Positions 6,802 to 24,890 of a stretch of DNA of 32,000 nucleotides are shown here, piece after piece (the stretch's first letter is position 1; every line of letters starts with the position of its first letter). The position numbers and the translations under genes were made by a program. The notes under the pieces were generated by a model. It made no database searches, was not told the DNA's origin, and saw only the letters and a list, made by a program, of their open reading frames with translations. Source of the stretch: Planctomycetales bacterium (GTDB lineage: Bacteria; 4484-113; JAFGCY01); the NCBI GenBank assembly GCA_022646745.1, contig CP060262.1, positions 1,230,001-1,262,000 on the forward strand. The letters are read 5' to 3'.

Positions 6802-6875
6802 GCAAACCCCCAAATCTGCTGAATGCAGTTCAAACCTGGATCACTGATCGCGCGAAGCGCTACTATCCCTCCAAC

Positions 6876-9086: not shown

Positions 9087-9156
9087 GCAAACCCCCAAGT
9101 CTGCCGGTTGCGTATCCGTCCAGTCTCCAGCCGTGGAAGGCCCAGCCCGGCCATTC

Positions 9157-11382
9157 CTACTCAGGTGGGATGTTGCCACGGATGGCGTAGACCTTCTTCG
9201 TGATCCTGTCAGCCACGATGAACACGGGCTTGTCATCCAGGATCTTCAGGTCGGCGCGCTCATAGGCATCAATCTCACCGATCTTCATCAGCTGCGTTTC
9301 CCATTCGCCGTTGCCACGCAGCACGGAGCAGTACCAGTCCCTGATACCGCCCCCCATGTAGACACAGACCAGCCCGTCGCGGAAAGGTTCCATCCGGCAA
9401 CCCTTGCCGGTCTTGTAGTCATCGGTGTCCGTCACGAGGTACTGGTCCCATGTCGGGTTGCCCTTGTCCTCCAACAGCATCAGGTCGCGGTTGTAGCCAT
9501 CATAGGCGATCAGTCCCCAGTGGTCGCCGAGCCATTCCAGGTCGGTGAACAGCAGTCCGTAGGTCCAGCCCTCCGGGTTGTCAGTGACCTGCGTGAATTC
9601 ATCAAGGTCCTCGGACCAGAGGTAGAGCTCACGATCTATGAAGTCAAAGGAGCTGGCGAACAGGCTGCCACTGCGGACTTCGAAATCCATTTCCGCCGGC
9701 CAGCTTTCCGGGATGGTAAAGAAGTCGTGCTTCTGCCAGGGCTTGTCCTTGCCATAGGGCCTGGTGTACCACTTCAGGCCGCCGCCGTAGAAATCCACGC
9801 CGCTGGCGTTGTAACCGTTGTCAGAGATCGCCACGGAGCAGTAGAGTCCCGCGGTCGGTGCCTGGAACCCCCCGCCGGTGCCCTCATCGATCAGCTCGAC
9901 ATCCCAGCCGGCCTCGGGTGCACCGATTGCTGCGTAGAAGTCGTGGCTCAGTGCGGTGACTGAAGTGATAAGGTAGGTGCCATCCTTGTAGTCAACGTCC
10001 AGGTGCTGCTCGAAGCCCCCAGCGCTGATTTCCTTGCCAACGTAACTGTTCCAGTAGGTGATGCTCTTGTCGAGGTCGGTGCCCTCCACTACCCAGGGCT
10101 CGCCGACGCCGTTGTTGCGCGCCACATGCACGACGTTGTCAAGCATGTATGCGGCGCAGATCTTGTCGTCGGCAATCACGGCGGCAATCGGTTCCTTGCC
10201 GTCGCCGATTTCCTCGATGTCGTACCATTCCCACTGGTCGCCGGTCAGGCAGGGCAGGGCATCCGTCATGCGGCCGAGTGCCCCATTGCTGTCCTTGGCA
10301 GCCAGCCGGACGAAATACAGGCGACCGGGGTCCAGCCCGCTGAACTTGTACTTGCGGGTTCCGCCCTGCGGGATGTTCTTCTTGATGGTCGGCGGCTCGA
10401 GGTTGAAATCCGGCGCGTTGGCCATGTAAACTTCCCAGCCGTTGGGGCTCGGTCCTTCCCAGTCCCAGGCGATCTCGAAGTCGAAGTCACCGACTGACAG
10501 CACTCGTAAATTCTGTGGAGCCGGCAGGTCAGCCGCCGGTACATATACATTCACGGCATTGCTGTAAATGGATTCGATCGCGGCGACGGATGTCACCCGG
10601 TAGAAGTACATCTCACCGCTGACCAGCCAGTCATCCTCGTAGCCAGCTTCCGTGATCGGCTCGGCATTGAGCTTGACCTGGTCAGTGAACTTGCGGTCGT
10701 AGGCCCGGTAGACGTTGTAACCGACGGCATTGCCGACTGCTTGCCAGCCAAGGTGCACGATGCCGGGATCCGCACTGGCCGAGAGGTCCGCCGGGGCCTC
10801 GAGGTTGGTGTCCCCGATGCGACCGATCGTCAGCGAGTACAGCTTGGCATCACCTTCGCCGACGCGCAGCACTGCGATATAGCAGTTGCCTGTCTCCGAA
10901 TGGTACAGGCCATTGGCGGGGAACACGTAACTGAAGTCATCCTTGCCGGCATCCGCGAACACCCAGTGGCCGGTATTGAAATCTGCAACGGCAATGTACA
11001 GCCGGCAGGGGGAATCCTCGTCCGTCCAGAAGCTGGCATAGACACTGCCGGCCTCAACTCCGCCGAAGCCGCCCAGCGCATAGATTCCCCAGGTGTTGTC
11101 CGGGCCATTGAGCTCAAGCGTGGTGCCGATTTCCTCAGCGGTCTCACTCTTGTCAATCCAGTCGCGGCCAAGCAGCTTGATCGAATCGTCGCTCAGGCTG
11201 CGTTCGACGGCGTCCAGGCCATCCGGGAACTGCATTTCCTGCGGTGCAGCAATCTCCGGTCCAGGCTGTAGTGCTGCCAGTGGAGAATTGTCATCCGCCT
11301 GGTTGCCATCCTGCACGACCGCTGTCCGCGAGCCGCAGCTGCACAAAAGCAATGCCAGCATCAGTATGCAAATCCTGCGCAT
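9157..11382 (-). CDS. large surface lipoprotein, paralog 3 of 4
   Basis: The ORF track gives 9157-11454. The start is placed at MRRICILMLALLLCSCGS (11382), preceded by caggaggtacggacATG. Collinear with paralog 2, with most residues identical by eye. Confidence 0.8.
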   Translation of the reverse strand: MRRICILMLALLLCSCGSRTAVVQDGNQADDNSPLAALQPGPEIAAPQEMQFPDGLDAVERSLSDDSIKLLGRDWIDKSETAEEIGTTLELNGPDNTWGIYALGGFGGVEAGSVYASFWTDEDSPCRLYIAVADFNTGHWVFADAGKDDFSYVFPANGLYHSETGNCYIAVLRVGEGDAKLYSLTIGRIGDTNLEAPADLSASADPGIVHLGWQAVGNAVGYNVYRAYDRKFTDQVKLNAEPITEAGYEDDWLVSGEMYFYRVTSVAAIESIYSNAVNVYVPAADLPAPQNLRVLSVGDFDFEIAWDWEGPSPNGWEVYMANAPDFNLEPPTIKKNIPQGGTRKYKFSGLDPGRLYFVRLAAKDSNGALGRMTDALPCLTGDQWEWYDIEEIGDGKEPIAAVIADDKICAAYMLDNVVHVARNNGVGEPWVVEGTDLDKSITYWNSYVGKEISAGGFEQHLDVDYKDGTYLITSVTALSHDFYAAIGAPEAGWDVELIDEGTGGGFQAPTAGLYCSVAISDNGYNASGVDFYGGGLKWYTRPYGKDKPWQKHDFFTIPESWPAEMDFEVRSGSLFASSFDFIDRELYLWSEDLDEFTQVTDNPEGWTYGLLFTDLEWLGDHWGLIAYDGYNRDLMLLEDKGNPTWDQYLVTDTDDYKTGKGCRMEPFRDGLVCVYMGGGIRDWYCSVLRGNGEWETQLMKIGEIDAYERADLKILDDKPVFIVADRITKKVYAIRGNIPPE

Positions 11383-11490
11383 GTCCGTACCTCCTGCGCC
11401 GCCCGCAAGCCTGGCAGGCGCCTGTCCCGGAGGCATCCTGCCTCCAACTTCCATTCCCTGGATCCGCGGATCCTCCAGCCGGTTTATTCC

Positions 11491-13704
11491 CTACAGCTCT
11501 CCGAATGGCGGGATCACTCCCGTCACGCACATGATCTTGTCCTTGTTGGGGGATGTGCTCTCGGTCTCCTCCACGAGGAAGTAGGGCACATCGTTGACGA
11601 CGACCAGCTCGGCACCGGTGGCGGGCTTGACGATCGGCATCAGCATCACCTGCTGGAACCACTGGCTGCCGTCATAAACCGAGCAGTACCAGTTGGTGCT
11701 GTCATCAAGGTAGACGCAGATCAGGCCAGTGCCGCGGAAGGGCTCAAGCCTGGCGTGCCCGCCATATCCGCCTGTTGCCAGGTCCTCGGAGTTCCAGCTG
11801 CCGCCGGACTGGCGCAGCAGGTAGAGGTCATCGTTCGTCACATCGTAGCTGGTGCTGACCCAGCCGCCCGGTGTCATCACCAGGTCGGTGTACAGGCCAT
11901 TGTTGTCACCCATGTTGTCGGAGATCACGGCGGGGGCATACGGAGCCGGGCCCTTGCCGAACAGCAGTTCATGGATCTCATAGTCGAAGTACATGTATTC
12001 TGGATTGTTGCCATTCGCCTTCATCTCGAGCTGCACCGGGAAGCCGCTGTCGTTCAGTGTGCGGACGCTGGTACTGGTCCAGCTGCCCCCGGCGATCGGC
12101 TTCTCACGCATGTAGGTCAGCTTGGCGTAGTAGTCCTTGTCGATGATGTAGTAGCTGTCGTCCGTGATTGCCACCGACAGGTGGTTGCCTGCGCTCGGCA
12201 CGTCGAACTGGCCGACCTTCGTGCCGTCCGCAACGAACTCCTTGGTCCAGCCATTGCCCGGGTCGCCATAACTGGCATACAGGTCCTGGTTGAGGAAGTC
12301 AAATGCACCAACCAGGAACTTACCGTTGCGCTCGGAGATGTCCAGGTAGTTGTCAAAGCTCTCTGTGCCGAACTCCAGCCCGCAGTCGCCAACTGACCAG
12401 CTGCTGCCGGTGCCCTGGGCGAAGGCTACACTGCCCGACGGGGTGCCACCAGCATTCGCACCGAGCCAGATGACACTGGCCGTGTTGCCGGTGGCCACTG
12501 CGCGGATCGGCTCGGAGCCGTTGCCAATCGGGTGCACCTGGGTCCAGTCCCAGAACTCACCGGTGATCGCCGGCAGGTCATCCGTCATCCGGCCGCGGGA
12601 GTTGTTCAGGCTGACGCCGACAATGCGGAAGTAGTACAGCGTGTTGGTCTGCAGGTTGTTGAACTGCGCACTGCGGGCCCAGCTCTGGGAGCGGTAGCGG
12701 ATCTCGATCTCTGGTTCGAGGTTGAAGTCCTTCTCGGCCTTCAGGTAGACATAGAATCCGTTGGCAGGCTCAGGTCCGAGTTCCTCGATGTTCCAGTCCC
12801 AGCCAATCGTGACTGAATCAGGCGTCGCTTCGTCAACACGCGGGTTCTGCGGCGCCGGCATGTCGATCGTCGGTGCGAACAGGTCGATGTAGTCACTCGG
12901 GCCGGATTCCGTTGCGCCGACTGCTGTGACGAAGAAGTAGTAGATAACGCCCTTGAGGATCGGGGTGTAATCGAAGTCCGGGCCTGTCACTGGCTCTGTG
13001 TTCAGCTTCAGCGGGTCACGCAGGTCCGACCAGCGGGAGAAGTAGACGTTGTAGCTCTGAGCACCGGGCACCGGGTCCCACTGCAGGCCGATGTTCTCGG
13101 GAGTCTGCTCGTCACTGCGCAGGTTCTTCGGAGCAGTGATGGTCACATCGCCGACTCGGTTGAAGGTCAGCTTCTGCACGTCTATCGTAGCCGGACCGGT
13201 ACGCAGCAGTGCAATGTGCACGTTGCCGTTCGGGCTGGCGTAATGTGCTGGAGTAACCGGTGTGAAGGTATAGCTTCCATTCTCAGTGGTGCTGAACCAT
13301 TCCCAGCGGCCCTTGTTGTAGTTGGCCATGCCGATGTACAGCACAGTGCCGGCCCCGGTCAGGATGTTGTATTCAGCCTTGATGGAACCGAGGTCCAGTG
13401 TGTCGAAGCTGCTCAGGCTGTAGATCGCCCAGGGGGCCGTGCCATCATTGAGCTTGCAGACCGTGGAGACTGCATGCGCGCCTCCACCGGCTGAGCTGAA
13501 CTCATTGCCCAGCAGCTCGATTGAGTCATCACTGGCCTTGCGGAAGTTGTCCGCCGGTGGCCAGCTGAGGTCTCCCGCTTCGGCCGGCAGGATGTCCACA
13601 GTGCCTGTATCACCTACCCTTGGATCGCCTGAGCCGCAGGAGACAAGCGCGAGTGCAAGTGTGACAAGCATCACGAAGCGACAGTTCTGGAGCAGAATCT
13701 TCAT
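11491..13704 (-). CDS. large surface lipoprotein, divergent paralog 4 of 4
   Basis: 737 aa. The signal is MKILLQNCRFVMLVTLALALVSCGSG (canonical lipobox LVSC), with SD aaagga 6 nt upstream. It has the same module order as the other three, with an FN3-like LQWDPVPGAQSYNVYF...YYFFVTA, but a much more diverged sequence. Confidence 0.8.
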   Translation of the reverse strand: MKILLQNCRFVMLVTLALALVSCGSGDPRVGDTGTVDILPAEAGDLSWPPADNFRKASDDSIELLGNEFSSAGGGAHAVSTVCKLNDGTAPWAIYSLSSFDTLDLGSIKAEYNILTGAGTVLYIGMANYNKGRWEWFSTTENGSYTFTPVTPAHYASPNGNVHIALLRTGPATIDVQKLTFNRVGDVTITAPKNLRSDEQTPENIGLQWDPVPGAQSYNVYFSRWSDLRDPLKLNTEPVTGPDFDYTPILKGVIYYFFVTAVGATESGPSDYIDLFAPTIDMPAPQNPRVDEATPDSVTIGWDWNIEELGPEPANGFYVYLKAEKDFNLEPEIEIRYRSQSWARSAQFNNLQTNTLYYFRIVGVSLNNSRGRMTDDLPAITGEFWDWTQVHPIGNGSEPIRAVATGNTASVIWLGANAGGTPSGSVAFAQGTGSSWSVGDCGLEFGTESFDNYLDISERNGKFLVGAFDFLNQDLYASYGDPGNGWTKEFVADGTKVGQFDVPSAGNHLSVAITDDSYYIIDKDYYAKLTYMREKPIAGGSWTSTSVRTLNDSGFPVQLEMKANGNNPEYMYFDYEIHELLFGKGPAPYAPAVISDNMGDNNGLYTDLVMTPGGWVSTSYDVTNDDLYLLRQSGGSWNSEDLATGGYGGHARLEPFRGTGLICVYLDDSTNWYCSVYDGSQWFQQVMLMPIVKPATGAELVVVNDVPYFLVEETESTSPNKDKIMCVTGVIPPFGEL

Positions 13705-13748: not shown

Positions 13749-13822
13749 TGGGGAATCGTCTAACGGTAGGACGCCTGACTCTGGATCAGGTAGTCTAGGT
13801 TCGAATCCTAGTTCCCCAGCCA
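13749..13822 (+). tRNA. tRNA-Gln (anticodon CUG), CCA encoded
   Basis: Hand-folded 74-nt cloverleaf. Acceptor stem TGGGGAA/TTCCCCA; anticodon stem CCTGA/TCAGG; loop CTCTGGA (anticodon CTG); T-arm CTAGG-TTCGAAT-CCTAG; discriminator G plus CCA. Confidence 0.9.
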
Positions 13823-14847: not shown

Positions 14848-17800
14848 GTGAAACGCAAGACCAGCCGCAAGCTCATCTCCCTTCCAACCCTGATCGCAGT
14901 GTGCAGCCTGTTGTGCTGTGCCTGCGGATCCGGTTCCCGCCTGGATGTCAGTGCCGGCCCCTTTTCCTACCGGCGGATTTCCACCGCGATTGATTCCGAT
15001 CCAGCCTCTGGCACCCTTTCCCTGAAGCAGGAGAATGCTGGAGACGGCCTGCTGCTCAGCCTGATGGTGGAAGATGCACAGGACCTGCGCAGTCTGGCGG
15101 TTGAAATCTGCTTTGATGCAGAGGCCTGGCAGCTGGCGGATGCCGCAGCGAGCGAGCTGCTCGGTTCCGAACCTCTGCTGCTGCAAAGCTCGATGCTGGT
15201 TTCGAATGGAACGCTGGCCCACGGCCAGGTGTTGATTGATGCGGGCCAGCAGGCCGGATTCACCGGTTCCGGCTGCCTGGCGCGCTTCCACTTCACGCCT
15301 GGCGCCGGAGATGTCCCGCGCGAAACATCGGCAGTCTCGAATGCGCTGCCGCTGCCACAGTGGGATGAAGGGACATGGGAACTGAACTGGCCCTATTCAA
15401 ACACCGGTGACTACGACCAAAACAGTGAGGTCAACATTGCCGACCTGACCCCGATCGGGATCCACTTCGGCGAGGTCGTCAGCGACCCGCTCAGCAGCCA
15501 GGCGATCATTGACGGGGATGCCAATGGCGAGATCAACATCGCGGACATCACCCCGATCGGAGTGAACTACGGCCGCAGCCTGTCCGCCTACCGCTTGTGG
15601 GAGCTGGCCAGCCCGCTGGACTGGCTCGGGCCGGCTGATACCGTCCCGCTGGCCGACATCGTGTTTGCATCCGCCACTGGCCTGCCCGCACAGGACCTGC
15701 TGCAGTTCACATATAAGTATGCGGCGGATCCCGGTTATCGCTGGCTACGCCTCGCCCCGGTCAGTGGAGAGGACACCGGCCCGGTAACGGATTACATCTT
15801 CACCTATCCATCCCTGCAGCCACTGCTTTCCGTGGCTGACGGCACTGGACTTACCGGCAATGGCTCTGAAGCGGACCCATTCTCGCTGGAGGTGCCAGCC
15901 AGTGTCCCGCTGAAGCTGCTGCTGCAGGATGACACGGACGTGACGGCGGATGCGCTCAGCAGCTTTGCTGTCAGTGGCCCGGCCGGCGGCAGCATCAGTG
16001 GTTCCAGCCTCGAGCTGGATGCCTCAAGTGCCGGTGACTACCTTGTTACGGCGACATACGACGGCGTGCCTTCCGATCCCTTCGCGCTGTATTTCCATGT
16101 CAACGAACCACCTGAGGCAATTCTGGTTGCTAATCCAACCAGTGGCAATGTCCCGTTCACGGTGGAACTGGATGCCAGCCAGAGCAGCGACCCGGATGGT
16201 GAGATCGTGCTCGCGGAATGGGACTTTGACAACGATGGCACATTCGACCGTGAGACCGGTGATCTGCTGACAACCCTGCGACGGTATGACACAGAAGGTA
16301 CCTACGAGGCTGTGGTCAGGCTGACGGATGACAAGGGAGCCAGCAGCGTGAGTGACCCGCTGCTGATCACCGTGGAGCCCCCCAACCAACCACCGCAGCC
16401 GGTTGTCAGTGGCAACCCGCTCAGCGGCAATACCCCATTGACGGTGGAGTTTGATGCATCAGCCAGCTCGGACCCGGACGGCAGCATCGAGAGCATCAGC
16501 TGGGACTTTGACAACGACGGAAGCTATGAGCTGCTGGACAGCCAGGACTTCACGCCGCAGCATACATTCGTCGTGCCCGGACAGTATGAAGTGGCGGTGC
16601 GGCTGCGGGATGACGATGGCGCGGTCGCATTCAGCTCACCCCTGTTCATCAACGTGGGTGGCAACTTCCCACCGACAGCCGTGCTGCGCGCCGTGCCGAA
16701 TGCCGGTCCATCGCCACTGCTGGTGCAGCTCGATGCCAGTGAATCAACGGACGGTGACGGCAGCATCGTGCTCGTGGAATGGGATTTCAGCGGTGATGGC
16801 GAATATGACCAGAGCGGTACCCTGTTCGTGGTGAGCAACCTGTACACCGGTGATGGGGTGTTCCATCCGGTGGTGCGCCTGACTGACAACAATGGTGGCG
16901 TGACGGTCAGTGAACCGGCCACCGTCACCGTCGGCGTGGCAGCCGGTTCACCCCCCGTGGCACTGCTCAGCGCACTGCCCCAGTCCGGGCCGGCCCCGCT
17001 TGATGTCACGTTCAGTGGAACAGGCAGTACGGATGCTGATAATGACATCCTCTATGTGGAGTTCGACTTCGAAAATGACGGGACCTGGGACGTGCTGGAT
17101 GATGACGACTTCACGGTCTCACACCGCTATGAATTGGACGGGACCTATGAAGCAGTGCTGCGGGTGACGGACAGCTACGGATTCCGGGATACCAGTGATC
17201 CCGTTGAAATCACAGTCAGCAGCGGTTCTCCTCCCACTGCATTCTTCCAGGCGGCCAGCCTCAGCGGGGTTTCCCCGTTTGACCTGGTGCTGGATGCCTC
17301 TGGCAGCAGCGACCCTGACGGCTCGATCAGCCTGTACGAATGGGACGTGGATGCTGATGGATCCTACGACCTTGCGACAACATCCTCGAGCGCGCAGCTC
17401 AGCCTGGTGACCGAAGGCCAGCGGGACCTGCGCCTGCGGGTGACGGACAGTGACGGCATGTCCGCGACCTTCAGCCGGGAGTTCACGGTTTCCCCGCCGT
17501 CGCTGGGCTGGAATGACTGGAGCACAGGCATCGTGAACCCGCAGAATGCACACCTCCGTGCGGTTGGCGGCAGGCCGGCTGTCGCCTGGCAGTCCAGCGG
17601 GGCCGATCTGTTCTTCAAGCGCAGTGCGGATGTGGACGGGCATAGCTGGCCGGTGACAGGCTCGCTGGTGGACAGTGACCTCACGGGCTATCCCGGAGGC
17701 AGCATCCGATTGGTTGATTTTGCAGTCAGCGGCGGCGTGCCCTTGATGCTTACGCTGAAGGGCACCGCGGCCCAGGCCGACCATGACATGTTCGTCAGCC

Positions 17801-18588
17801 GTGGGCTCAATTCAGACGGCTCATCCTTTGCACTTCCGCTGAAGATCGTGTCCGGTCCGGTCTTCCGCCCGGACCGCGACAACCGTGGTCTGCCCCTGCT
17901 GGCGGAATTCAGCGGCCTGCCCGGTGTTTGCTATGGCTCCGATCAGAGCGGGGGCTGGCACCATATCCGGGCGCTGGACAGCACCGGCAGCAGCTGGCAG
18001 GCCAGCCCGAGTGCCATCAGCGGATCGCAGTCGGCGGCCAGTCCATTCGGAAGCCTGCTGCAGGATCCGTCCGGTGGTGCGCTGCTGTTCTACTTCGACC
18101 AGGACGGCATCATGGCCAACCGCGATCCGGATGGCAATGGCAGCAACTGGAACTTCCGCGAGCAGCTGTTCAGTATTGGAGATGTTGTCCGGATCCAGTC
18201 GATCACCAGTTCCGACAGCGTGCTGCTGCTGTACACCGTCAAGGAAGGAGTGACTGATTACACCCTGTGGGCCAGCCACGCCAGCTCGCCATCATTTGCC
18301 AGCTGGACCGATCCGGCCAGAGTTATTGACATCAATTCTTCAGTGGCTGATGCCCAGCTGCTGCTGGATAACGGCAAGCCTGTGGTGCTGCTCAGTGGCA
18401 ACCCCGGTGGCGATGGTGGGGTGCACTATCTTCGCAGCCACGATGCGCGCGGCAGTGGCTGGAGCGAGACTCGTCGGATCAGCAGCCAGACGGCCGGGGA
18501 ATTGCGCGCTGCCACGATTGTCAATGGGCGGCTGGCTGCCATCCATCTGCGCAGTAATGGTGCCCTCAGGCTGCTGCAGAGGGAATAG
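14848..18588 (+). CDS. giant surface lipoprotein: cohesin-like module, dockerin, five PKD domains, C-terminal propeller-like module
   Basis: 1246 aa. Signal MKRKTSRKLISLPTLIAVCSLLCCACGS. Two dockerin Ca-loop repeats lie at about 15406-15573: DYDQNSEVNIADL and DGDANGEINIADI, with D/N at positions 1, 3, 5 and 12. Five PKD repeats lie at about 16108-17493, each with a DAS.S.DPDG...WDFDNDG-like core. The C-terminal ~360 aa carry recurrent D-x-x-G-x-x-W motifs. The cohesin-like call for aa ~55-150 is weaker. Confidence 0.8.
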   Translation: MKRKTSRKLISLPTLIAVCSLLCCACGSGSRLDVSAGPFSYRRISTAIDSDPASGTLSLKQENAGDGLLLSLMVEDAQDLRSLAVEICFDAEAWQLADAAASELLGSEPLLLQSSMLVSNGTLAHGQVLIDAGQQAGFTGSGCLARFHFTPGAGDVPRETSAVSNALPLPQWDEGTWELNWPYSNTGDYDQNSEVNIADLTPIGIHFGEVVSDPLSSQAIIDGDANGEINIADITPIGVNYGRSLSAYRLWELASPLDWLGPADTVPLADIVFASATGLPAQDLLQFTYKYAADPGYRWLRLAPVSGEDTGPVTDYIFTYPSLQPLLSVADGTGLTGNGSEADPFSLEVPASVPLKLLLQDDTDVTADALSSFAVSGPAGGSISGSSLELDASSAGDYLVTATYDGVPSDPFALYFHVNEPPEAILVANPTSGNVPFTVELDASQSSDPDGEIVLAEWDFDNDGTFDRETGDLLTTLRRYDTEGTYEAVVRLTDDKGASSVSDPLLITVEPPNQPPQPVVSGNPLSGNTPLTVEFDASASSDPDGSIESISWDFDNDGSYELLDSQDFTPQHTFVVPGQYEVAVRLRDDDGAVAFSSPLFINVGGNFPPTAVLRAVPNAGPSPLLVQLDASESTDGDGSIVLVEWDFSGDGEYDQSGTLFVVSNLYTGDGVFHPVVRLTDNNGGVTVSEPATVTVGVAAGSPPVALLSALPQSGPAPLDVTFSGTGSTDADNDILYVEFDFENDGTWDVLDDDDFTVSHRYELDGTYEAVLRVTDSYGFRDTSDPVEITVSSGSPPTAFFQAASLSGVSPFDLVLDASGSSDPDGSISLYEWDVDADGSYDLATTSSSAQLSLVTEGQRDLRLRVTDSDGMSATFSREFTVSPPSLGWNDWSTGIVNPQNAHLRAVGGRPAVAWQSSGADLFFKRSADVDGHSWPVTGSLVDSDLTGYPGGSIRLVDFAVSGGVPLMLTLKGTAAQADHDMFVSRGLNSDGSSFALPLKIVSGPVFRPDRDNRGLPLLAEFSGLPGVCYGSDQSGGWHHIRALDSTGSSWQASPSAISGSQSAASPFGSLLQDPSGGALLFYFDQDGIMANRDPDGNGSNWNFREQLFSIGDVVRIQSITSSDSVLLLYTVKEGVTDYTLWASHASSPSFASWTDPARVIDINSSVADAQLLLDNGKPVVLLSGNPGGDGGVHYLRSHDARGSGWSETRRISSQTAGELRAATIVNGRLAAIHLRSNGALRLLQRE

Positions 18589-18734
18589 GACTCACTCCAA
18601 ATCATTTCCAGTAGAGGAACCGATTGATGCCTGCCGGTGCAGTGGCGACAGGATGGATTTCGCCTAGGAATGTTTTGGAAAAAAGATCAATCATTTAGTT
18701 TACTCCTGCTTTCCCTGGAATATTTATTCAAAAT

Positions 18735-18763
18735 TTGAATTTTTGGCGGAAGCACCCTAGAAT
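18735..18763 (+). promoter_or_regulatory. near-consensus sigma70-type promoter TTGAAT-N17-TAGAAT upstream of the tripled cassette
   Basis: TTGAAT at 18735-18740, a 17-nt spacer, then TAGAAT at 18758-18763, within an AT-rich stretch. It implies a leader of roughly 87 nt before the ATG at 18857. Confidence 0.55.
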
Positions 18764-18856
18764 CTGCATAGGAGCAAAACCTTGCGCTCCCCTCGTGATT
18801 CATCCCCGCATTCCCTTTCGCGCGGATGAACACGGACATAGATCGGAGGAAGAACA

Positions 18857-19195
18857 ATGAATCGCATCAGCATCGTTATCGCTGCCATTGCCATGATGGC
18901 CCTCGCTGCCTGTTCCAGTACAGCAGGCAATGACATGATTTCAGACAGCATGCAGCAGAAGGACGCAAGCAGCGTGTCACTGACCCTGGTCTGGAATGCA
19001 AATGCCACGCTGTGCAACTTCAAGCTGGCTGACTACGATGCCACGCTCGGCGAGCTGTACAAGGGCACTGACTTCGACGCCGACATGGATCGCATGGAGG
19101 AAGCCATCGCCTTTGAACTCAGCCTCAATCGCAATGACATCCAGGGTGAGTCCACCATGGGATTCGTCCACTTCGACGATGAAGTCGTCGACTGA
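18857..19195 (+). CDS. small lipoprotein, cassette module 1 (112 aa)
   Basis: SD ggagga 6 nt upstream. Signal plus lipobox MNRISIVIAAIAMMALAAC. The C-terminus STMGFVHFDDEVVD is shared with the two downstream copies. Confidence 0.8.
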   Translation: MNRISIVIAAIAMMALAACSSTAGNDMISDSMQQKDASSVSLTLVWNANATLCNFKLADYDATLGELYKGTDFDADMDRMEEAIAFELSLNRNDIQGESTMGFVHFDDEVVD

Positions 19196-19242
19196 GCCGG
19201 CAGGCACTGGTATCCAATTCACCAACTAACAAAGGAAAAAAA

Positions 19243-19374
19243 ATGAGCAACAACCACTTCGACATCAACCAGCAGACCATCAACCTTCCGGCTGGCGCAC
19301 ACGGCGTGCTCAGCACCTGCCTGACCGACAGCAGCCCGGACTATGTGTGGTTCGACTGCGAAGCCGAACTCTAG
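19243..19374 (+). CDS. 43-aa peptide, cassette module 1 (absent from the ORF track, below its length cutoff)
   Basis: My translation is MSNNHFDINQQTINLPAGAHGVLSTCLTDSSPDYVWFDCEAEL. SD aaagga lies upstream. The 29 C-terminal codons differ from copy 2 only by synonymous changes. Confidence 0.8.
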   Translation: MSNNHFDINQQTINLPAGAHGVLSTCLTDSSPDYVWFDCEAEL

Positions 19375-19441
19375 GAACGTGACAAACCTTCCGCGCTGAG
19401 CGGAATCGCCATCCAACCCAGTTACAAGAGAGGAATACACA

Positions 19442-19633
19442 ATGAAGAAGATCAGCATCACCATCGCCACCATCGCCCTGTTCGCGCTCTGCTCCTGCTC
19501 CGGCCAGGGATCCACCGACATGCTTGGTGAAAGCAACACCGAATACGGCAATCCGAGCCTTGGCCAGGATGCTTCCGTGGACTTCCGCGACACCAGCGGC
19601 TTCGTGCACTTTGATGATGAGACGGTCGACTAG
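19442..19633 (+). CDS. small lipoprotein, cassette module 2 (63 aa, internally shortened variant)
   Basis: SD agagagga. Signal MKKISITIATIALFALCSC. It keeps the C-terminal GFVHFDDETVD but lacks the central WNAN...DF..DM...E.AIA block found in modules 1 and 3. Confidence 0.7.
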   Translation: MKKISITIATIALFALCSCSGQGSTDMLGESNTEYGNPSLGQDASVDFRDTSGFVHFDDETVD

Positions 19634-19672
19634 ACCTGCAAGTAATCCACCACCTACTGCGAGGAAAGAACA

Positions 19673-19804
19673 ATGAGCAACATCAACAACGACAGCAACA
19701 TCCAGAGCATCAGCCTCCCCGCCGGTGCCCATGGTGTCCTGAGCACCTGCCTGACTGACAGCAGCCCGGACTACGTATGGTTCGACTGCGAGGCTGAGCT
19801 CTAG
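19673..19804 (+). CDS. 43-aa peptide, cassette module 2 (absent from the ORF track)
   Basis: My translation is MSNINNDSNIQSISLPAGAHGVLSTCLTDSSPDYVWFDCEAEL. SD gaggaaag lies upstream. Confidence 0.8.
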   Translation: MSNINNDSNIQSISLPAGAHGVLSTCLTDSSPDYVWFDCEAEL

Positions 19805-19873
19805 GAACCACCTGCACCTGTCCGGGATTACCGGGCTGGACCAGACCGAAAGATACATCCAAGGAGAAATAAA

Positions 19874-20203
19874 ATGAACAAGATCAACACCCTCATCGCC
19901 ATCGTCGCCCTCAGCATCCTCTGCTCCTGCTCCGGCCAGTCCACCAGCGACATGCTTGCCGAGCGCAACACCGCAGATGTGACCTCCGTGATCGACGGCT
20001 GGAATGCCAACTGCGCCACCTACAACTTCGGCCCGGCTTACTCCGATGAGACCCTTGGCGACATCTACTACGGCTCTGACTTCGAGACCGACATGAACGG
20101 CATCGAGCAGGCGATCGCAGACTACTACGGCATCTCCCGCGACAACGTGGATGGCACCTCCACCATGGGTTTCGTGCACTTCGATGATGAGACGGTGGAC
20201 TAA
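19874..20203 (+). CDS. small lipoprotein, cassette module 3 (109 aa)
   Basis: SD aaggag. Signal MNKINTLIAIVALSILCSC. Collinear with module 1 (WNANCATYNF, GSDFETDM, IEQAIA). The C-terminus is STMGFVHFDDETVD. Confidence 0.8.
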   Translation: MNKINTLIAIVALSILCSCSGQSTSDMLAERNTADVTSVIDGWNANCATYNFGPAYSDETLGDIYYGSDFETDMNGIEQAIADYYGISRDNVDGTSTMGFVHFDDETVD

Positions 20204-20264
20204 ACAGTAACCAGGCAATTCCTGTCTGAATACTGAACACCTGAACACCCAAGAGGAAAGAGAA

Positions 20265-20396
20265 ATGGAAAAGAACAACATCGAGATCGAGCAGCCGACG
20301 GCAAGCCTCCCCGCAGGAGCGCATGGCATCCTCAGCACACGCCTGACGGATGAGAGCCCGGATTACGTCTGGTTCGACTGCGAAGCCGAGCTGTAG
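20265..20396 (+). CDS. 43-aa peptide, cassette module 3 (absent from the ORF track)
   Basis: My translation is MEKNNIEIEQPTASLPAGAHGILSTRLTDESPDYVWFDCEAEL. SD agaggaaag lies upstream. Confidence 0.8.
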   Translation: MEKNNIEIEQPTASLPAGAHGILSTRLTDESPDYVWFDCEAEL

Positions 20397-20414
20397 CTGC
20401 CGGGATTGCGGCAG
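20397..20414 (+). terminator. short GC hairpin immediately after the last cassette gene (weak terminator or RNA-stability element)
   Basis: CTGCCG-ggattg-CGGCAG starts right after the stop codon, with no U-tract. Similar small hairpins follow peptide 1 (TTCCGC-gctga-GCGGAA, 19389-19405) and peptide 2 (CCGG-gatta-CCGG, 19822-19834). Confidence 0.25.
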
Positions 20415-20641
20415 TAAACAAGCTGTAGGGACTGGCCGCCTGGATGTGCAGGCGTGCCGGGATGACTGATGAATCGGGATGGGAGATCCTCGGGTGGATG
20501 ATGGACCACCCGCAGGCTGCCGGCATTCGCCGGACACGCACTCATTCATTTCGCCAGGCAAGAAATGTGCCTGCGCGCGCAAGAACGGGACAGATAATCA
20601 ATGGAAGGCCATGCCTGAACAAGCAGGCAGTGAACCGGGGA

Positions 20642-21460
20642 TCAGGCGGTCAGGGTGTTGACTGAGTTGCCACCGCCGAATTCGGGGTTGCGGAAATGGC
20701 GCTTCAATACATCCATCAGGCTTTCACCGTTGTCATCAGTGATCTGCTTGATGCGCTGCTCGAAGCTCTGCTCCACATCCTCGTCGACGATTCCCAGTTG
20801 CAGTGAGGGCTGCCAGATATCCTTCTGGATGTACTTGATGTGTTCAGCGAACTCGGCATTATCCATCACCCACAGCAGGTCTTCCTTGTTGAAGAGCCGC
20901 TGCACGATGCGCATCAGGGCATAGGCCCGGACCCAGTTCCAGTTGGCATGCAGGCCGCGGGCGTTGTTGATCGCGAAGTCGTAGGACTTGATCAGGTACT
21001 GCTCATTGCCCAGCTTGTAGGCCCAGCTGGTGATCTTGTTCCACAGCTCGGAGGTCTGCATGTCCAATGGAATCACGCTCAGCAGGCGGTCCATCGTGGT
21101 CTGGTCCAGCGGCAGGAACTCCAGGCGGTCCATCGTGATCCTGAGCTGGAGGTATAGCCGGCGGCGCAGCATCTCGGCACTCTCGAAGCTGCTTTCCTGC
21201 TCGAGGCGGTTGAGGATTCCCGGCAGGTACTTCATCGCCCAGCCCTCCTCACGCTGCACCAGCCTTACCTGGTACTCCAGGTAGGTCAGCTGGTAAAAGA
21301 AGCGAGAGTTCTCTTCCTCTGGGAACATGACGGCTTCATGGGCTTTCCATGCTTCCTGCATGCGCTGCTCCTGAAGCTTCGTATCACGCGCGTACAGGGC
21401 GTGCACGATCGGCTCACAGAAGTCCACGAACCACTTTTCCTTGGATAGGTCTAGCGTCAT
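20642..21460 (-). CDS. hypothetical cytoplasmic protein with no signal peptide
   Basis: The ORF track gives 20642-21565. I prefer the internal Met (MTLDLSKEKWF...), which is preceded by TATAAT (21476-21471) and aagg. The region 21461-21565 is AT-rich and looks non-coding. No family recognised. Confidence 0.55.
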   Translation of the reverse strand: MTLDLSKEKWFVDFCEPIVHALYARDTKLQEQRMQEAWKAHEAVMFPEEENSRFFYQLTYLEYQVRLVQREEGWAMKYLPGILNRLEQESSFESAEMLRRRLYLQLRITMDRLEFLPLDQTTMDRLLSVIPLDMQTSELWNKITSWAYKLGNEQYLIKSYDFAINNARGLHANWNWVRAYALMRIVQRLFNKEDLLWVMDNAEFAEHIKYIQKDIWQPSLQLGIVDEDVEQSFEQRIKQITDDNGESLMDVLKRHFRNPEFGGGNSVNTLTA

Positions 21461-21807
21461 TGCCTTGGAAATTATACCTGAATTTAACCTTTCTCCGGCT
21501 GCCCCTTGCTGCCGGATTCCGCCTCTCCGAAAATTAAATTCCGAAGCTACATCAAAATATATCATTTCTTGCCAGTCATTTCCACATCAAACCACGCGCA
21601 TGTACATGAAATGTTAACTGGAATTAACCTGGGGCCAGTTCTTGCGAAGTTTCGCCCGTGCTCCGGTGCAGTTTCGCACCGGATGTCACTTTGCCAGACC
21701 ACTCCAAGCATTTGACCTTTGCTGATATTTACGATGTCCCGCCAGGCAACAATTCCGCTGCAATTCAGATATAATTGCGCTGCATTCATTTGCGGAGGAA
21801 GAACAGA

Positions 21808-22164
21808 ATGAAAGTCTGGATCATGATATTGCTTGTGTTGCTCGCGCTGACGGGAGTGGCTGCCGCCAGCCCGTTTGACGGCATGAGTGTCGCGCAGATC
21901 CGTGCTCACGAGAACTTCACGCCCGATACCCAGAGCATGTCCTGGGCGACCAACAGTGGTGACCCCGACGCACCCCATATCTACTGGTGGATCGGCTACA
22001 TTCCCAACGGGGAGCAGCGTATCTACTTCACCAGCTACGGTGAGGCCCTGACCTGTGTCAAGTGGGGCGAGACCGGTGAGTGGGTACCGCTGTGGGTGCG
22101 CGATGCACTGGACAAGCTTGTGGCGGAGGAGATAATCGTGCTGGAGCCGGGCAAGGCCGAGTAA
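21808..22164 (+). CDS. small secreted hypothetical protein
   Basis: The ORF track gives 21775-22164. The internal Met at 21808 is preceded by SD ggagga and starts the signal peptide MKVWIMILLVLLALTGVAAASP. Confidence 0.65.
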   Translation: MKVWIMILLVLLALTGVAAASPFDGMSVAQIRAHENFTPDTQSMSWATNSGDPDAPHIYWWIGYIPNGEQRIYFTSYGEALTCVKWGETGEWVPLWVRDALDKLVAEEIIVLEPGKAE

Positions 22165-22213
22165 TTGCCGAATTCCCGGTCCACTGAAACCCGGACAGTC
22201 GGGGGAGGATCAA

Positions 22214-23119
22214 ATGATCGGGATGAAGCGAACAGTATGCGCAGCGGGTTTATTACTAATCCTGTTGCTGACAGCATGCAACGATGACAAGGGCCGGGAA
22301 CAGGCCAGCACCGGAAATGGTGCTCCTGCCCCCGGCCTTTCTGCTGAAACAGACTCCGCTGGAAGTGATGACGCAGCAGAAACGCAGCAGGACAGCACCG
22401 AACAAGACAGCGGGGCTGATGATGGTGGAGTAGTTGAGGGCCATGGCAATGACATCCTCGACCGGCACTGGCAGGAAACCGTCATCGAGTTCAAGAACCC
22501 ACTGTCCATGAGCATGGAACTGAAGGACGCGCGCTTCAACCCGGAAGAAGGAGCGAAGATGTCCTTCCTCGATTTCGAGGCCAGCTGCCGCGTAGGCCGC
22601 AAGGACTGGCTCTACAAGGACCTCACGATGGATAGCCTGAAGTCCACCGACAGCGCCACGCTTGAGCTCGACATCTGCAGCGTGGAACTGATGCCGCTTC
22701 TGCGCAACCCGGTGGTGGAAGGACGCACAAGCACCGGTGGCACGCGGCTGAGGATGGACGGCGGACTGCGTTTCATCGTGCGTGACCCGCAGGGTAATGT
22801 GATGGGCAGCTTCGTGGTCGGGGAAGAAGGGCGGCTGGAGGACACCGAGAAGGGCGAGCTGTACTCCTGGCGCATCTCGGAAACCGATGATGCGATGATG
22901 CCGACGGAGTACGTGTTCTTCCGTACACCGGGCAAGGGCGAATCCATCCATTATGAATTCGGGGTCAGCTACCGGCACGGCAGTATGGCACGCAAGACCG
23001 TCAGCGATCCACTCGGCAATGAAATCACCTACATGTTCCCGAACGGCAGCGTGGAGATCCTGCCACCCAACCCGCCGAAGCGGGACGAGCCGGACGATGG
23101 AGGAGTGCGCCGCGAGTAG
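22214..23119 (+). CDS. hypothetical lipoprotein
   Basis: SD gggggagga upstream. Signal plus canonical lipobox MKRTVCAAGLLLILLLTAC, followed by an acidic low-complexity linker. No family recognised. Confidence 0.7.
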   Translation: MIGMKRTVCAAGLLLILLLTACNDDKGREQASTGNGAPAPGLSAETDSAGSDDAAETQQDSTEQDSGADDGGVVEGHGNDILDRHWQETVIEFKNPLSMSMELKDARFNPEEGAKMSFLDFEASCRVGRKDWLYKDLTMDSLKSTDSATLELDICSVELMPLLRNPVVEGRTSTGGTRLRMDGGLRFIVRDPQGNVMGSFVVGEEGRLEDTEKGELYSWRISETDDAMMPTEYVFFRTPGKGESIHYEFGVSYRHGSMARKTVSDPLGNEITYMFPNGSVEILPPNPPKRDEPDDGGVRRE

Positions 23120-23132
23120 GGTTGCTAGGCTG

Positions 23133-23138
23133 TAGAAT
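23133..23138 (+). promoter_or_regulatory. -10 hexamer TAGAAT exactly 6 nt upstream of the ATG (leaderless-type)
   Basis: ctgTAGAATctgcccATG with no SD, in a 25-nt intergenic gap. Confidence 0.45.
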
Positions 23139-23144
23139 CTGCCC

Positions 23145-24890
23145 ATGAGCAGATTCGCAATGATGCTGGCCGTGCTGGCGCTGCTGCCCGCGATGGCCCT
23201 TGCCAACGGCTACGACACCTACAGTGCACCGATCGCCTGGAGCCCGGACAGCCACGAGCTGTGCGTGGTGCAGGGCTACGACTGGCCCCAGCCGCAGGTT
23301 GCCAACGAAGGCAGCGTGCTGGTGTATGACCAGTACGGTCGGATCCAGTACGACCTCGGGACCTGGGATGCAGGCTCGCCGGCCTACAGCCCGGATGGGA
23401 AGTACCTCGCAGTGATTGCCAACGGACAGGCGCAGCTCTTCCTGCGCGACGGCTATGAGCCGCTTGCGCCGGTGGACCTCGAGGGCAGCGGGCTGGACCT
23501 GGCCTTCGTCGGCCAGCCGGGTGAGTACGAGCTGGCCTACAGTGTCGGGCCGCGCTTCTACGGGGCCAGCCTCGTGATCCAGCAGCCGGAGGGTGGCAAC
23601 GAGACCGAACTGCCAAAGCCCCTGCCCGGTGACAGCGCGATCAGCCTGCGGATGTGCCCGACGGACTGGCGGATGGCCTTCCTGCTGCAGAGCACGGCGG
23701 ACAACGGCCCGGCCTACGAGCGGATCTACGGTTTCGATGACAACGGCGAACCCTACCAGCTGACGAGGCCGCAGTTGCGCCCTGATGACTACCACGAAAG
23801 CAACATCTGCTTCATGCCCGATGGCAGCCTGCTGTTCCAGCGCGGCGGCTGGGGGGACTGGCACATCTTCCGGCTCGATCCGGCCAGCGGACGCGAGACC
23901 CTCGTTGTCCCGGATGCGCAGCAGCCCAGCGTCAGTGCGGACGGAAGGCTGATTGCGTTCACGCGGCGCAGCTATGCAGATAAGCAGAAGGTCGAATACG
24001 ACTGGGAGATCCCGCCCGGGGTCTGGGTGCGTGACCTGGCAACCGGCCAGGAGTGGCGCATCAGTGACAACGAGAATGAGGCGGAGCATCCGGTGATCTC
24101 ACCGGACGGGCGCAAGCTGGCCTGGCTGCAGCGCATGGAGACTGAGCCGCGCCTGATGGTGCGCAGCGTGATCGGCTTCACCGGCGTGCTCGAGAAGCTG
24201 GAGCAGGATGCCGATGACGACACGGTAATGTATGAAGACATCCAGATGGACGAGCCGCTGATTGACGACGAGCAGGACCCGGAACTGGGCGGGATTGACA
24301 GCACGGCTGAACACCTGTCCCCCAAGGCAATGGAGATCAGCTACGTCAAGTTCGAATGCACGAATGGCGACATCATCTTCGCCGTGCACCATGAGTGGAA
24401 CCCGCTGGCGGCGGAGCGCTTCATCACGCTTGTCAACAGCGGCTACTACGACGGCGCACCCTGGTTCCGGGTGATTGACGGTTTCGTGGCCCAGTGTGGC
24501 ATCAGTGCGGACCCGCGCATGAATGCGGAATGGGACGAGGCGACCTTCCCGGATGAGGAGGTGCTGGTTGGCAACACCCGCGGGATGGTGGCCTACGGCA
24601 AGACAGGCGACCCGGATTCGCGCACCACGCATATCTACATCAACTATGGCGACAACTCACGGCTGGACGAGAAGGGCTTCAGCGCATTCGCTGAGGTCTG
24701 GCAGGGAATGGACGTGGCCGACTCGCTGTTCCGCTGCGAGTATGACGACCAGGAAGGGTTGGCGGCGGAGGGCGGCCTGGCCAAATTCCGTGAGATGTTC
24801 CCCGAGGCGGATTTCATTGAGCTGGCCTATGTGATGGAGGGCGATCCACCGGCCTACCAGCCTGTGCTGGAGCCGGAATCGATGGAATAA
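23145..24890 (+). CDS. exported fusion protein: TolB-like (PD40) beta-propeller plus C-terminal cyclophilin-type peptidyl-prolyl isomerase
   Basis: Signal MSRFAMMLAVLALLPAMALA. PD40-like repeats: SPDGKYLAV, MPDGSLLF, SADGRLIAFT, SPDGRKLAW. The C-terminal ~170 aa match the cyclophilin signature (NPLAAERFITLVNSGYYDGAPWFRVIDGFVAQCG ... RGMVAYGKTGDPDSRTTHIYINYGDNSRLD ... FAEVWQGMDV). Confidence 0.8.
   Translation: MSRFAMMLAVLALLPAMALANGYDTYSAPIAWSPDSHELCVVQGYDWPQPQVANEGSVLVYDQYGRIQYDLGTWDAGSPAYSPDGKYLAVIANGQAQLFLRDGYEPLAPVDLEGSGLDLAFVGQPGEYELAYSVGPRFYGASLVIQQPEGGNETELPKPLPGDSAISLRMCPTDWRMAFLLQSTADNGPAYERIYGFDDNGEPYQLTRPQLRPDDYHESNICFMPDGSLLFQRGGWGDWHIFRLDPASGRETLVVPDAQQPSVSADGRLIAFTRRSYADKQKVEYDWEIPPGVWVRDLATGQEWRISDNENEAEHPVISPDGRKLAWLQRMETEPRLMVRSVIGFTGVLEKLEQDADDDTVMYEDIQMDEPLIDDEQDPELGGIDSTAEHLSPKAMEISYVKFECTNGDIIFAVHHEWNPLAAERFITLVNSGYYDGAPWFRVIDGFVAQCGISADPRMNAEWDEATFPDEEVLVGNTRGMVAYGKTGDPDSRTTHIYINYGDNSRLDEKGFSAFAEVWQGMDVADSLFRCEYDDQEGLAAEGGLAKFREMFPEADFIELAYVMEGDPPAYQPVLEPESME

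Follow-up and report, generated by a model that had tools for sequence, protein, structure and literature searches.

The 32,000-nucleotide window analysed here (Planctomycetales bacterium, assembly GCA_022646745.1, contig CP060262.1, positions 1,230,001 to 1,262,000; window coordinates below are counted from its first letter) contains a tandem array of three two-gene modules, each encoding a small lipoprotein and a 43-residue peptide that lacks a signal sequence. This cassette is one arm of a conserved three-gene module composed of an acidic lipoprotein, an acidic leaderless peptide, and an adjacent, usually convergent gene for a helical protein of ~270 amino acids (aa). The triad is syntenic across different gene neighborhoods, the peptides evolve under purifying selection, constraint on the lipoprotein is focused on its C-terminal tail, and tail and peptide share a short motif of aromatic and acidic residues. 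A tentative explanation, which we consider possible, is that this motif docks onto the helical protein and that the peptide imitates the lipoprotein tail in soluble form, a proposal in which we infer the binding, the competition, the compartment, and the output. Even if the mechanism differs, the locus presents a compact, conserved, and unannotated triad from a candidate phylum without cultured members.

A conserved three-gene unit

The genes of the array and its partner are as follows, with the evidence for each in parentheses (ORF, open reading frame; SD, Shine-Dalgarno sequence).

18857-19195, plus strand: lipoprotein 1, 112 aa, with signal peptide, lipobox LAAC, predicted helical core, and tail GFVHFDDEVVD (ORF, SD, homologues)
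19243-19374, plus strand: peptide 1, 43 aa, leaderless, net charge -6, ending in DYVWFDCEAEL (ORF, homologues, purifying selection)
19442-19633, plus strand: lipoprotein 2, 63 aa, with tail GFVHFDDETVD (ORF, alignments)
19673-19804, plus strand: peptide 2, 43 aa (ORF, homologues, selection analysis)
19874-20203, plus strand: lipoprotein 3, 109 aa (ORF, homologues, AlphaFold2 model of the mature part)
20265-20396, plus strand: peptide 3, 43 aa, with the first Cys replaced by Arg (ORF)
20642-21460, minus strand: third partner gene, ~272 aa, predicted all-alpha and cytoplasmic (ORF, homologues beside the pair, AlphaFold2 model)

The six small ORFs bear out the arrangement first proposed for this stretch, with three lipoprotein-peptide modules on the plus strand between 18857 and 20396, a common lipoprotein ending of GFVHFDDE[VT]VD, and a purine-rich SD 5-10 nucleotides (nt) upstream of every ORF (6/6). 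Lipoprotein and peptide genes are separated by 47, 39, and 61 nt, and successive modules by 67 and 69 nt. The peptides are without signal peptides, as anticipated, having no hydrophobic N-terminus and a net charge of -6 to -7. The length of exactly 43 aa holds for all three copies here and does not extend to the family, in which peptides range from 22 to 65 aa. Peptide 3 is identical to a cluster (P0017) present on 26 contigs. The array is probably a single operon; fusion of lipoprotein and peptide by read-through or frameshifting was considered and dropped, the frame offsets between the two genes being unequal across modules (2, 0, and 1).

Lipoprotein and peptide form a conserved adjacent pair, as had been suggested, both in orthologous loci of metagenome-assembled genomes (MAGs) and in distant relatives with different neighborhoods. 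Adjacency in the close relatives reflects orthology and is not independent evidence, because all of them sit in one syntenic locus. The original prediction also held that nearby genes give no functional hint, a statement overturned by the convergent gene just downstream of the array, which is a conserved third partner. Its homologues lie beside the pair in loci L013, L017, L019, L020, L021, and L030 (E = 1e-13 to 1e-44) and in all close relatives, with the distant homologues 22-33% identical. A partner of this type (A7) is present in every locus of subfamily A, defined below, for which enough flanking DNA is available, comprising three distant lineages and all close relatives. The neighbors of the triad include PKD and TetR genes in the window and RuvB, deformylase, 5'-3' exonuclease, and NAGPA genes in L020 and the contig of P0034; because these flanking genes differ between lineages, the triad, and not the wider neighborhood, is the conserved unit.

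The partner ORF is open to position 21565, which mechanically yields 307 aa. Orthologues of 270-274 aa start at the Met at 21460, and their alignment therefore places the true start there, giving a protein of 272 aa. This protein has no signal peptide, many invariant Trp residues, and few invariant polar residues. Two A7-type partner paralogues (L021, 944-1738, and L030, 430-1251), one divergent upstream and the other convergent downstream, appear to flank a single pair, assuming that L021 and L030 come from the same population.

New protein families, with purifying selection on peptide and tail

Neither small protein had been recognized as a member of a characterized family, and the searches agree: no match above cut-off was found for either in Pfam-A, NCBIfam, or PADLOC, and scans of these curated collections were equally negative for the distant relatives and for the 272-aa partner. 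In the PADLOC defense models no match reached E <= 0.01, the sole row being one of 12 bits (E = 0.027). PDB sequence and Foldseek searches gave no significant relative for the module's proteins, and IMG/VR (viral) and PLSDB (plasmid) contained no relatives of the module. The family is tiny: a set of 5.8 billion proteins contains only 7 clusters of the lipoprotein and 17 of the peptide, and 4 of 185,579 species genomes are carriers. All cluster members come from uncultured UBP7/4484-113-type MAGs and from one syntenic locus; the window itself represents a diderm-like organism, with a gene for a FadL-type outer membrane protein. All three proteins would define new families, each with a clear testable motif, and as judged by these comparisons their architecture matches no described system.

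That the 43-aa ORFs truly encode proteins follows from their pattern of divergence. Over the C-terminal 29 codons, 15 synonymous substitutions and no non-synonymous ones separate peptides 1 and 2, and the rate of synonymous substitution (dS) is saturated; across the whole ORF, the ratio of non-synonymous to synonymous rates (dN/dS) among paralogues is 0.08-0.24. The combination of paralogue dN/dS with synteny allows ORFs of 22-65 aa to be validated from sequence alone. The peptide alignment is divided into a variable N-terminal segment of 14 residues and the near-invariant C-terminal 29.

Tandem small ORFs with a variable N-terminus and a conserved, aromatic and Cys-containing C-terminus, always adjacent to an uncharacterized protein, recall ribosomally synthesized and post-translationally modified peptides (RiPPs). 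The 43-aa ORFs would then be precursors and the 272-aa protein a novel maturase or scaffold, with the lipoprotein providing immunity, export, or a second substrate. Several observations make this assignment improbable. No recognizable maturase (radical S-adenosylmethionine enzyme, YcaO, LanB/C/M, or lasso B/C), protease, or transporter is encoded in the window, L020, L018, or L029. Conservation is inverted relative to typical RiPP precursors, the "core" being conserved above the "leader", the Cys residues are not kept in distant peptides, and the partner is predicted to be all-alpha with few invariant polar residues. A lasso peptide with a G1...D9 ring was rejected separately, given the absence of B/C enzymes and of Thr at -2 and the lack of G...D spacing in distant peptides.

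In the lipoprotein, the tail is the most conserved segment of the alignment and is invariant across orthologues. Between the tails of copies 1 and 3, 5.8 of 6.3 synonymous sites have changed versus 2.2 of 26.7 non-synonymous sites, and the tails of copies 2 and 3 differ by 3 synonymous and 0 non-synonymous changes. Outside the tail and over the whole protein, the ratio of non-synonymous to synonymous differences per site (pN/pS) among paralogues is 0.5-0.9. By these counts, selection on the lipoprotein is concentrated on the tail. The 63-aa lipoprotein 2, a form also found in L006-L008, carries an in-frame internal deletion and retains the signal peptide, the lipobox, a short linker, and the tail.

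The larger member of each pair is, from inspection of its signal peptide and lipobox, a predicted bacterial lipoprotein (Lgt/LspA substrate), with a hydrophobic signal followed by the lipobox. Residues M1, L16, C19, and S20 (L-[CAS]-[SA]-C after the hydrophobic stretch) do not vary among 15 homologues or the distant relatives. An AlphaFold2 model of mature lipoprotein 3 contains a helical core, ~55 aa in the family, with a predicted local distance difference test score (pLDDT) of ~80 and a tail predicted to be disordered (pLDDT <50), as expected for a linear motif. A Foldseek search of the core against PDB folds returned no significant match, the best being H-NOX (E = 1.3). The mature lipoprotein is strongly acidic, with a net charge of -9 to -16, and peptides across the family have a net charge of -5 to -11 and neither a signal peptide nor a hydrophobic segment. 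A match of the lipoprotein profile to P0036, a giant (6721 aa) RTX-type Ca-binding repeat protein, in six stretches (E = 5.5e-4) was judged to be a compositional artefact.

Distant relatives and a shared C-terminal motif

Distant relatives were found by exhaustive hidden Markov model search with a profile of the mature lipoprotein, followed by contig look-ups. A degenerate DNA pattern, run against 241 million metagenome records, yielded 10 in-frame matches, which together with the look-ups supplied independent contexts; five pattern matches with an out-of-frame gap (101 nt) were discarded as chance matches to an unrelated gene. The distant lipoproteins are 95-119 aa long and 22-36% identical, lie in other neighborhoods, and share a core, WNxxCxxYNF...TLGxLYxGSDFxxD, that corresponds to no Pfam family. 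Those of subfamily A have a tail of the form ...Y[ILV]W[YF]D with further acidic residues, and in every case a small acidic leaderless ORF comes next. The paired C-termini are as follows.

L019/L020: lipoprotein tail ALYLWYDNTGDGDDID, peptide end GMDYIWYDCLGDD
L021/L030: lipoprotein tail ALYIWFDEEDPT, peptide end GMDRIWFDSFDESE
L023: lipoprotein tail ALYVWFDGEGEGELD, peptide end GMEYVWFDSLVED
L028: lipoprotein tail ALYVWYDNDADDPW, peptide end VDHIWYDSLGD
L015: lipoprotein tail TYIWYDDTGDDWEKI, peptide end MECIWYDSLADDYS

Both proteins end in [IVL]-W/H-[FY]-D followed by acidic residues. In a six-frame translation of the 32-kb window, the pattern [IVL][WH][FY]D[SCDNEG] has exactly 6 matches, which are the C-termini of the six ORFs. 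Comparison of the peptide and lipoprotein profiles with hhalign detected nothing, because the motif is too short, and an ungapped-window shuffle test was used instead. The best ungapped 6-mers of tail and peptide (YVWFDG/YVWFDS, YLWYDN/YIWYDC, YVWYDN/HIWYDS, IWYDDT/IWYDSL, and WFDEED/WFDSFD) match at p = 0.0004-0.02 versus shuffles in five distant pairs, always 8-14 residues from both C-termini. In the window's own clade, the likeness is recognizable only through the family.

One way to account for a motif held in common is direct binding of the peptide to its own lipoprotein, through contact with the helical core or pairing of the aromatic motifs as beta strands, as anchor and ligand or effector and neutralizer, with the 272-aa protein as a side regulator or chaperone. 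The two genes are strictly adjacent and in the same orientation in all subfamily-A loci, whole modules duplicate together, and the residue at motif position 4 (F or Y) agrees within the pair in 7/7 pairs, as read off the sequences of related lineages. Direct pairing is nevertheless unlikely. The peptide is leaderless and the lipoprotein exported, and both are strongly acidic, so that they would reside in different compartments and repel each other electrostatically; moreover, the peptide paired with the 63-aa lipoprotein is fully conserved even though that lipoprotein has no helical core, and cognate combinations do not score above non-cognate ones. The shared C-terminal motif is at least as readily explained by a third protein that binds both products as by their binding to each other.

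Subfamily B lipoproteins (L018, 2181-4008; L029, 668-2384; L016; L022) have the same helical core and another tail, ...LLSAVLxDPxW[YF]x. No peptide ORF was seen in the loci that were translated downstream (L018/L022, L026, and L029), and in L016 the following gene lies only 4 nt from that of the lipoprotein. The convergent partner in subfamily B, 273-282 aa in length and accompanied by a Cro/C1 helix-turn-helix (HTH) gene, is not detectably related to the A-type partner, and the hhalign probability of 0.6% between the two gives no basis for claiming homology; subfamily B may be a sister system. An orphan paralogue, P0029 (L033, 5001-5348, from the same MAG as L009), is located between 5'-3' exonuclease and NAGPA genes, the site occupied in L020 by the full triad; both peptide and partner are missing here, and the tail is a degenerate version (MVFCEFTGDG versus LWYDNTGDG). 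Across these loci, tail type appears to track partner type, with a different tail, no peptide, and a partner without detectable relationship in subfamily B and a degenerate tail in the orphan.

These comparisons also bear on the simplest alternative, in which there is no functional coupling, the genes are lineage-specific and remain together by ancestry, and the peptide is a relic of partial duplication of the lipoprotein 3' end. The close homologues all represent one orthologous locus, the family is very small, and common descent could explain the shared motif. Such an origin would leave unexplained the extreme purifying selection on the peptide C-terminus while dS is saturated, the persistence of the triad at 22-33% partner identity in a changed neighborhood, and the loss of the motif from the partnerless orphan lipoprotein, and we regard it as very improbable.

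A proposed mechanism and its alternatives

In the docking proposal, the motif common to tail and peptide would be a short linear docking motif read by a helical-repeat-like protein serving as cytoplasmic receptor, with the peptide as a competitor or decoy for the lipoprotein tail. How far the receptor is filled would then weigh lipoprotein still awaiting export against the peptide pool, and the circuit could act as a chaperone or checkpoint dedicated to export or as a sensor of envelope status. The complete mimicry circuit, in which a decoy peptide competes with the W-acidic tail of an exported lipoprotein at a dedicated receptor that reads or controls export or envelope status, is a somewhat doubtful extension of the docking proposal.

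The nature of the partner is compatible with this role in outline, as its AlphaFold2 model is all-alpha with 13 helices, and this fold, together with the invariant Trp residues, weakly resembles a peptide-binding scaffold. Helical-repeat/TPR proteins also lead its Foldseek matches, none of them significant. The same model is also one of the weak points of the docking proposal, as it was obtained from a single sequence and has low confidence (pLDDT 57). Foldseek returned no significant match for it (best E = 0.19), no TPR Pfam model reached E <= 1 in any of 7 partner members, and no other Pfam repeat was detected. Within the window, where the lipoprotein has His in place of Trp (FVHFDD versus YVWFDC), the similarity of tail and peptide is not significant (p = 0.75), and the same is true of L017. 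Cognate pairs perform no better than non-cognate ones (520/5040 permutations), and specific cognate co-variation, non-significant by permutation, was rejected. The main objection is topological: the mature tail lies outside the cytoplasm, and a cytoplasmic receptor could meet it only before export. Finally, the evidence comes from a few related uncultured lineages and is hence not independent.

A signaling system of the RRNPP or pheromone-inhibitor kind offers a different use for the same three components, in which the clipped tail diffuses, is re-imported, and is sensed by a helical-repeat protein, with the small ORF encoding an inhibitor. The architecture parallels the enterococcal system, in which the pheromone is excised from a lipoprotein precursor, a small ORF supplies the inhibitor, and the two bind the same receptor domain (PMC5552905, PMC7117660). 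The top Foldseek matches of the low-confidence partner model are generic helical-repeat/TPR proteins, among them Rap of phage phi3T (E = 0.21) and ComR (E = 0.42), with BtubC, a bacterial TPR protein, also listed; all are non-significant (E >= 0.19). A profile search of the partner against the PDB gave only matches with E = 0.6 and E = 1.6, the former a weak, non-significant alignment of residues 195-238 to an MCM chain (2m45), and a Cro/C1 HTH gene stands beside the partner in subfamily-B loci. Against this reading, no HTH, TPR, Rap-type phosphatase, or other domain was detected in the partner, and no Opp-type importer or processing protease is encoded near the loci examined. The peptide also has no export signal and a polar, acidic N-terminus unlike that of Phr-type pro-peptides, and the shared element is the C-terminal tail and not the signal peptide. 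A pheromone-type circuit is accordingly quite unlikely.

Expression signals of the array

The nucleic acid elements around the modules are listed here.

18717-18730, plus strand: operator-like inverted repeat (G/T)GAATA-TT-TATTCA, just upstream of the -35 element
18735-18763, plus strand: sigma-70-like promoter TTGAAT-N17-TAGAAT (consensus scan, conservation)
18794-18834, plus strand: 5' leader hairpin within a leader of ~90 nt (RNAalifold)
19389-19405, plus strand: GC hairpin after peptide 1 (UUCCGC-GCUGA-GCGGAA), spacer z = -1.8, no U tract
19820-19836, plus strand: GC hairpin after peptide 2 (loop GAUUA), z = -1.4
20396-20459, plus strand: two GC hairpins at the array end, between convergent genes, z = -3.2

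The near-consensus promoter site postulated upstream of the first gene is present and conserved, although the bare consensus match has no weight of its own, one being found where 1.0 is expected by chance. Its support comes from phylogenetic footprinting, which shows that the hexamers are kept: in 6 related genomes the -10 element (TAGAAT) is invariant and the -35 is TTGAAT or TTGATT, with the rest of the intergenic region diverged. The inverted repeat occurs once in the window versus 0.03 expected, and every related locus that includes the beginning of the array also has it, with no more than one mismatch. Repeat, promoter, and leader are common to six genomes.

For the leader hairpin, 94% of cells are paired, with 3 compensatory pairs; 11/500 shuffles reach the observed value, and slid controls give 19-55%. 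These figures, from 6 sequences, are suggestive of a hairpin conserved as structure. The region has no Rfam family match. A hairpin resembling a pseudo-SD/anti-SD pairing, GGAGC...GCUCC, is also seen in the 18717-18834 region and might take part in translational control.

The hairpins described after each peptide ORF are present, with stems of 6-7 bp and loops GCUGA, GAUUA, and GGAUUG. They are not canonical intrinsic terminators: no U tract follows any of them, and the folds after peptides 1 and 2 are weak.

Copy number and surrounding genes

The stoichiometric triplication, which had been read as a sign of an interacting pair, is not general. Distant lineages have one pair, L001 and L009 have two modules, and the window and L006-L008 have three; L005 contains at least three near-identical modules with a period of 582 bp (9359-10765), and its contig ends inside the array. 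With copy number running from 1 to at least 3, the triplication is lineage-specific, and it is proposed that the array grows and shrinks by unequal recombination. In MAG Ww346 the array is divided between two contigs (L013/L014). From this split and the L005 contig end, copy numbers in assemblies are probably underestimated.

The common locus order in close relatives is fn3 paralogues, TetR, a PKD lipoprotein of 1244-1246 aa, the modules, and the convergent gene without a Pfam match, followed by genes of 114-118 aa and 301-307 aa and a PD40-cyclophilin gene. In the window, four tandem paralogues (737-786 aa) that match Pfam only through a single fn3 domain apiece occupy 4594-13704 on the minus strand and are syntenic in all related MAGs. 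A tRNA-Gln (CTG) at 13749-13822 lies between this block and the TetR gene. The array is immediately preceded, in the same orientation and with conserved synteny, by the gene for a 1246-aa lipoprotein with ~5 PKD repeats (14848-18588), in which candidate dockerin-like repeats (DxNxDGxINIADITPIG) can be recognized by eye; a PKD-containing gene is likewise found near the distant triad in L030 (~2108-2311). Downstream, positions 21775-24890 hold genes of 118-129 aa and 301 aa, neither assignable to a family, and a 581-aa PD40 plus cyclophilin gene, a block that is syntenic only in the UBP7-type clade.

Comparison with known systems

The enterococcal pheromone/inhibitor-PrgX system parallels the triad in its pheromone-type reading, in that a lipoprotein precursor and a separate small ORF each supply a similar short element and a cytoplasmic helical receptor encoded nearby takes up the two at a single site, with iCF10 competing with cCF10 on PrgX (PMC5552905, PMC7117660). 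In the triad, by contrast, it is the C-terminal tail that is shared, the small ORF has no export signal, and the partner has no detectable HTH or TPR. The host is diderm-like, genes of the Opp, Eep, or PptAB type are absent from the vicinity, and there is no sequence homology or significant structural homology.

Tandem arrays of RiPP precursors are similar in having small ORFs of near-equal length in tandem, with one half conserved and the other variable. They differ from the present array, in which the small ORFs are interleaved with lipoprotein genes, the C-terminal half is conserved, and no maturase, transporter, or protease is found.

The entericidin A/B locus contains small tandem genes with lipobox signals, both of whose products are lipoproteins. 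The array described here has one lipoprotein per pair and a third conserved gene, with no NCBIfam or Pfam match.

The all-helical chaperones TorD and DmsD of twin-arginine translocation and the TPR-type class II chaperones of type III secretion systems are cytoplasmic, are encoded beside an exported client, and read a short terminal peptide before export. These chaperones bind N-terminal signal peptides or translocator segments. They are not homologous to the partner, and the C-terminal acidic tail and mimic peptide of the triad have no known counterpart in either.

For the binding mode itself, recognition of W-acidic or Y-acidic linear motifs in TPR grooves is established (PMC6214655). The TPR domain of kinesin light chain, a helical-repeat reader, binds a W or Y flanked by acidic residues in a disordered segment (PMC6214655), much as is predicted for the triad; kinesin light chain is eukaryotic and without homology to the partner, and the likeness is an analogy of binding mode. 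If the docking proposal is correct, the triad would represent a bacterial case of W-acidic linear-motif recognition and a new logic linking the cytoplasm to lipoprotein export, in which an encoded competitor peptide, a client tail, and a reader protein act together.

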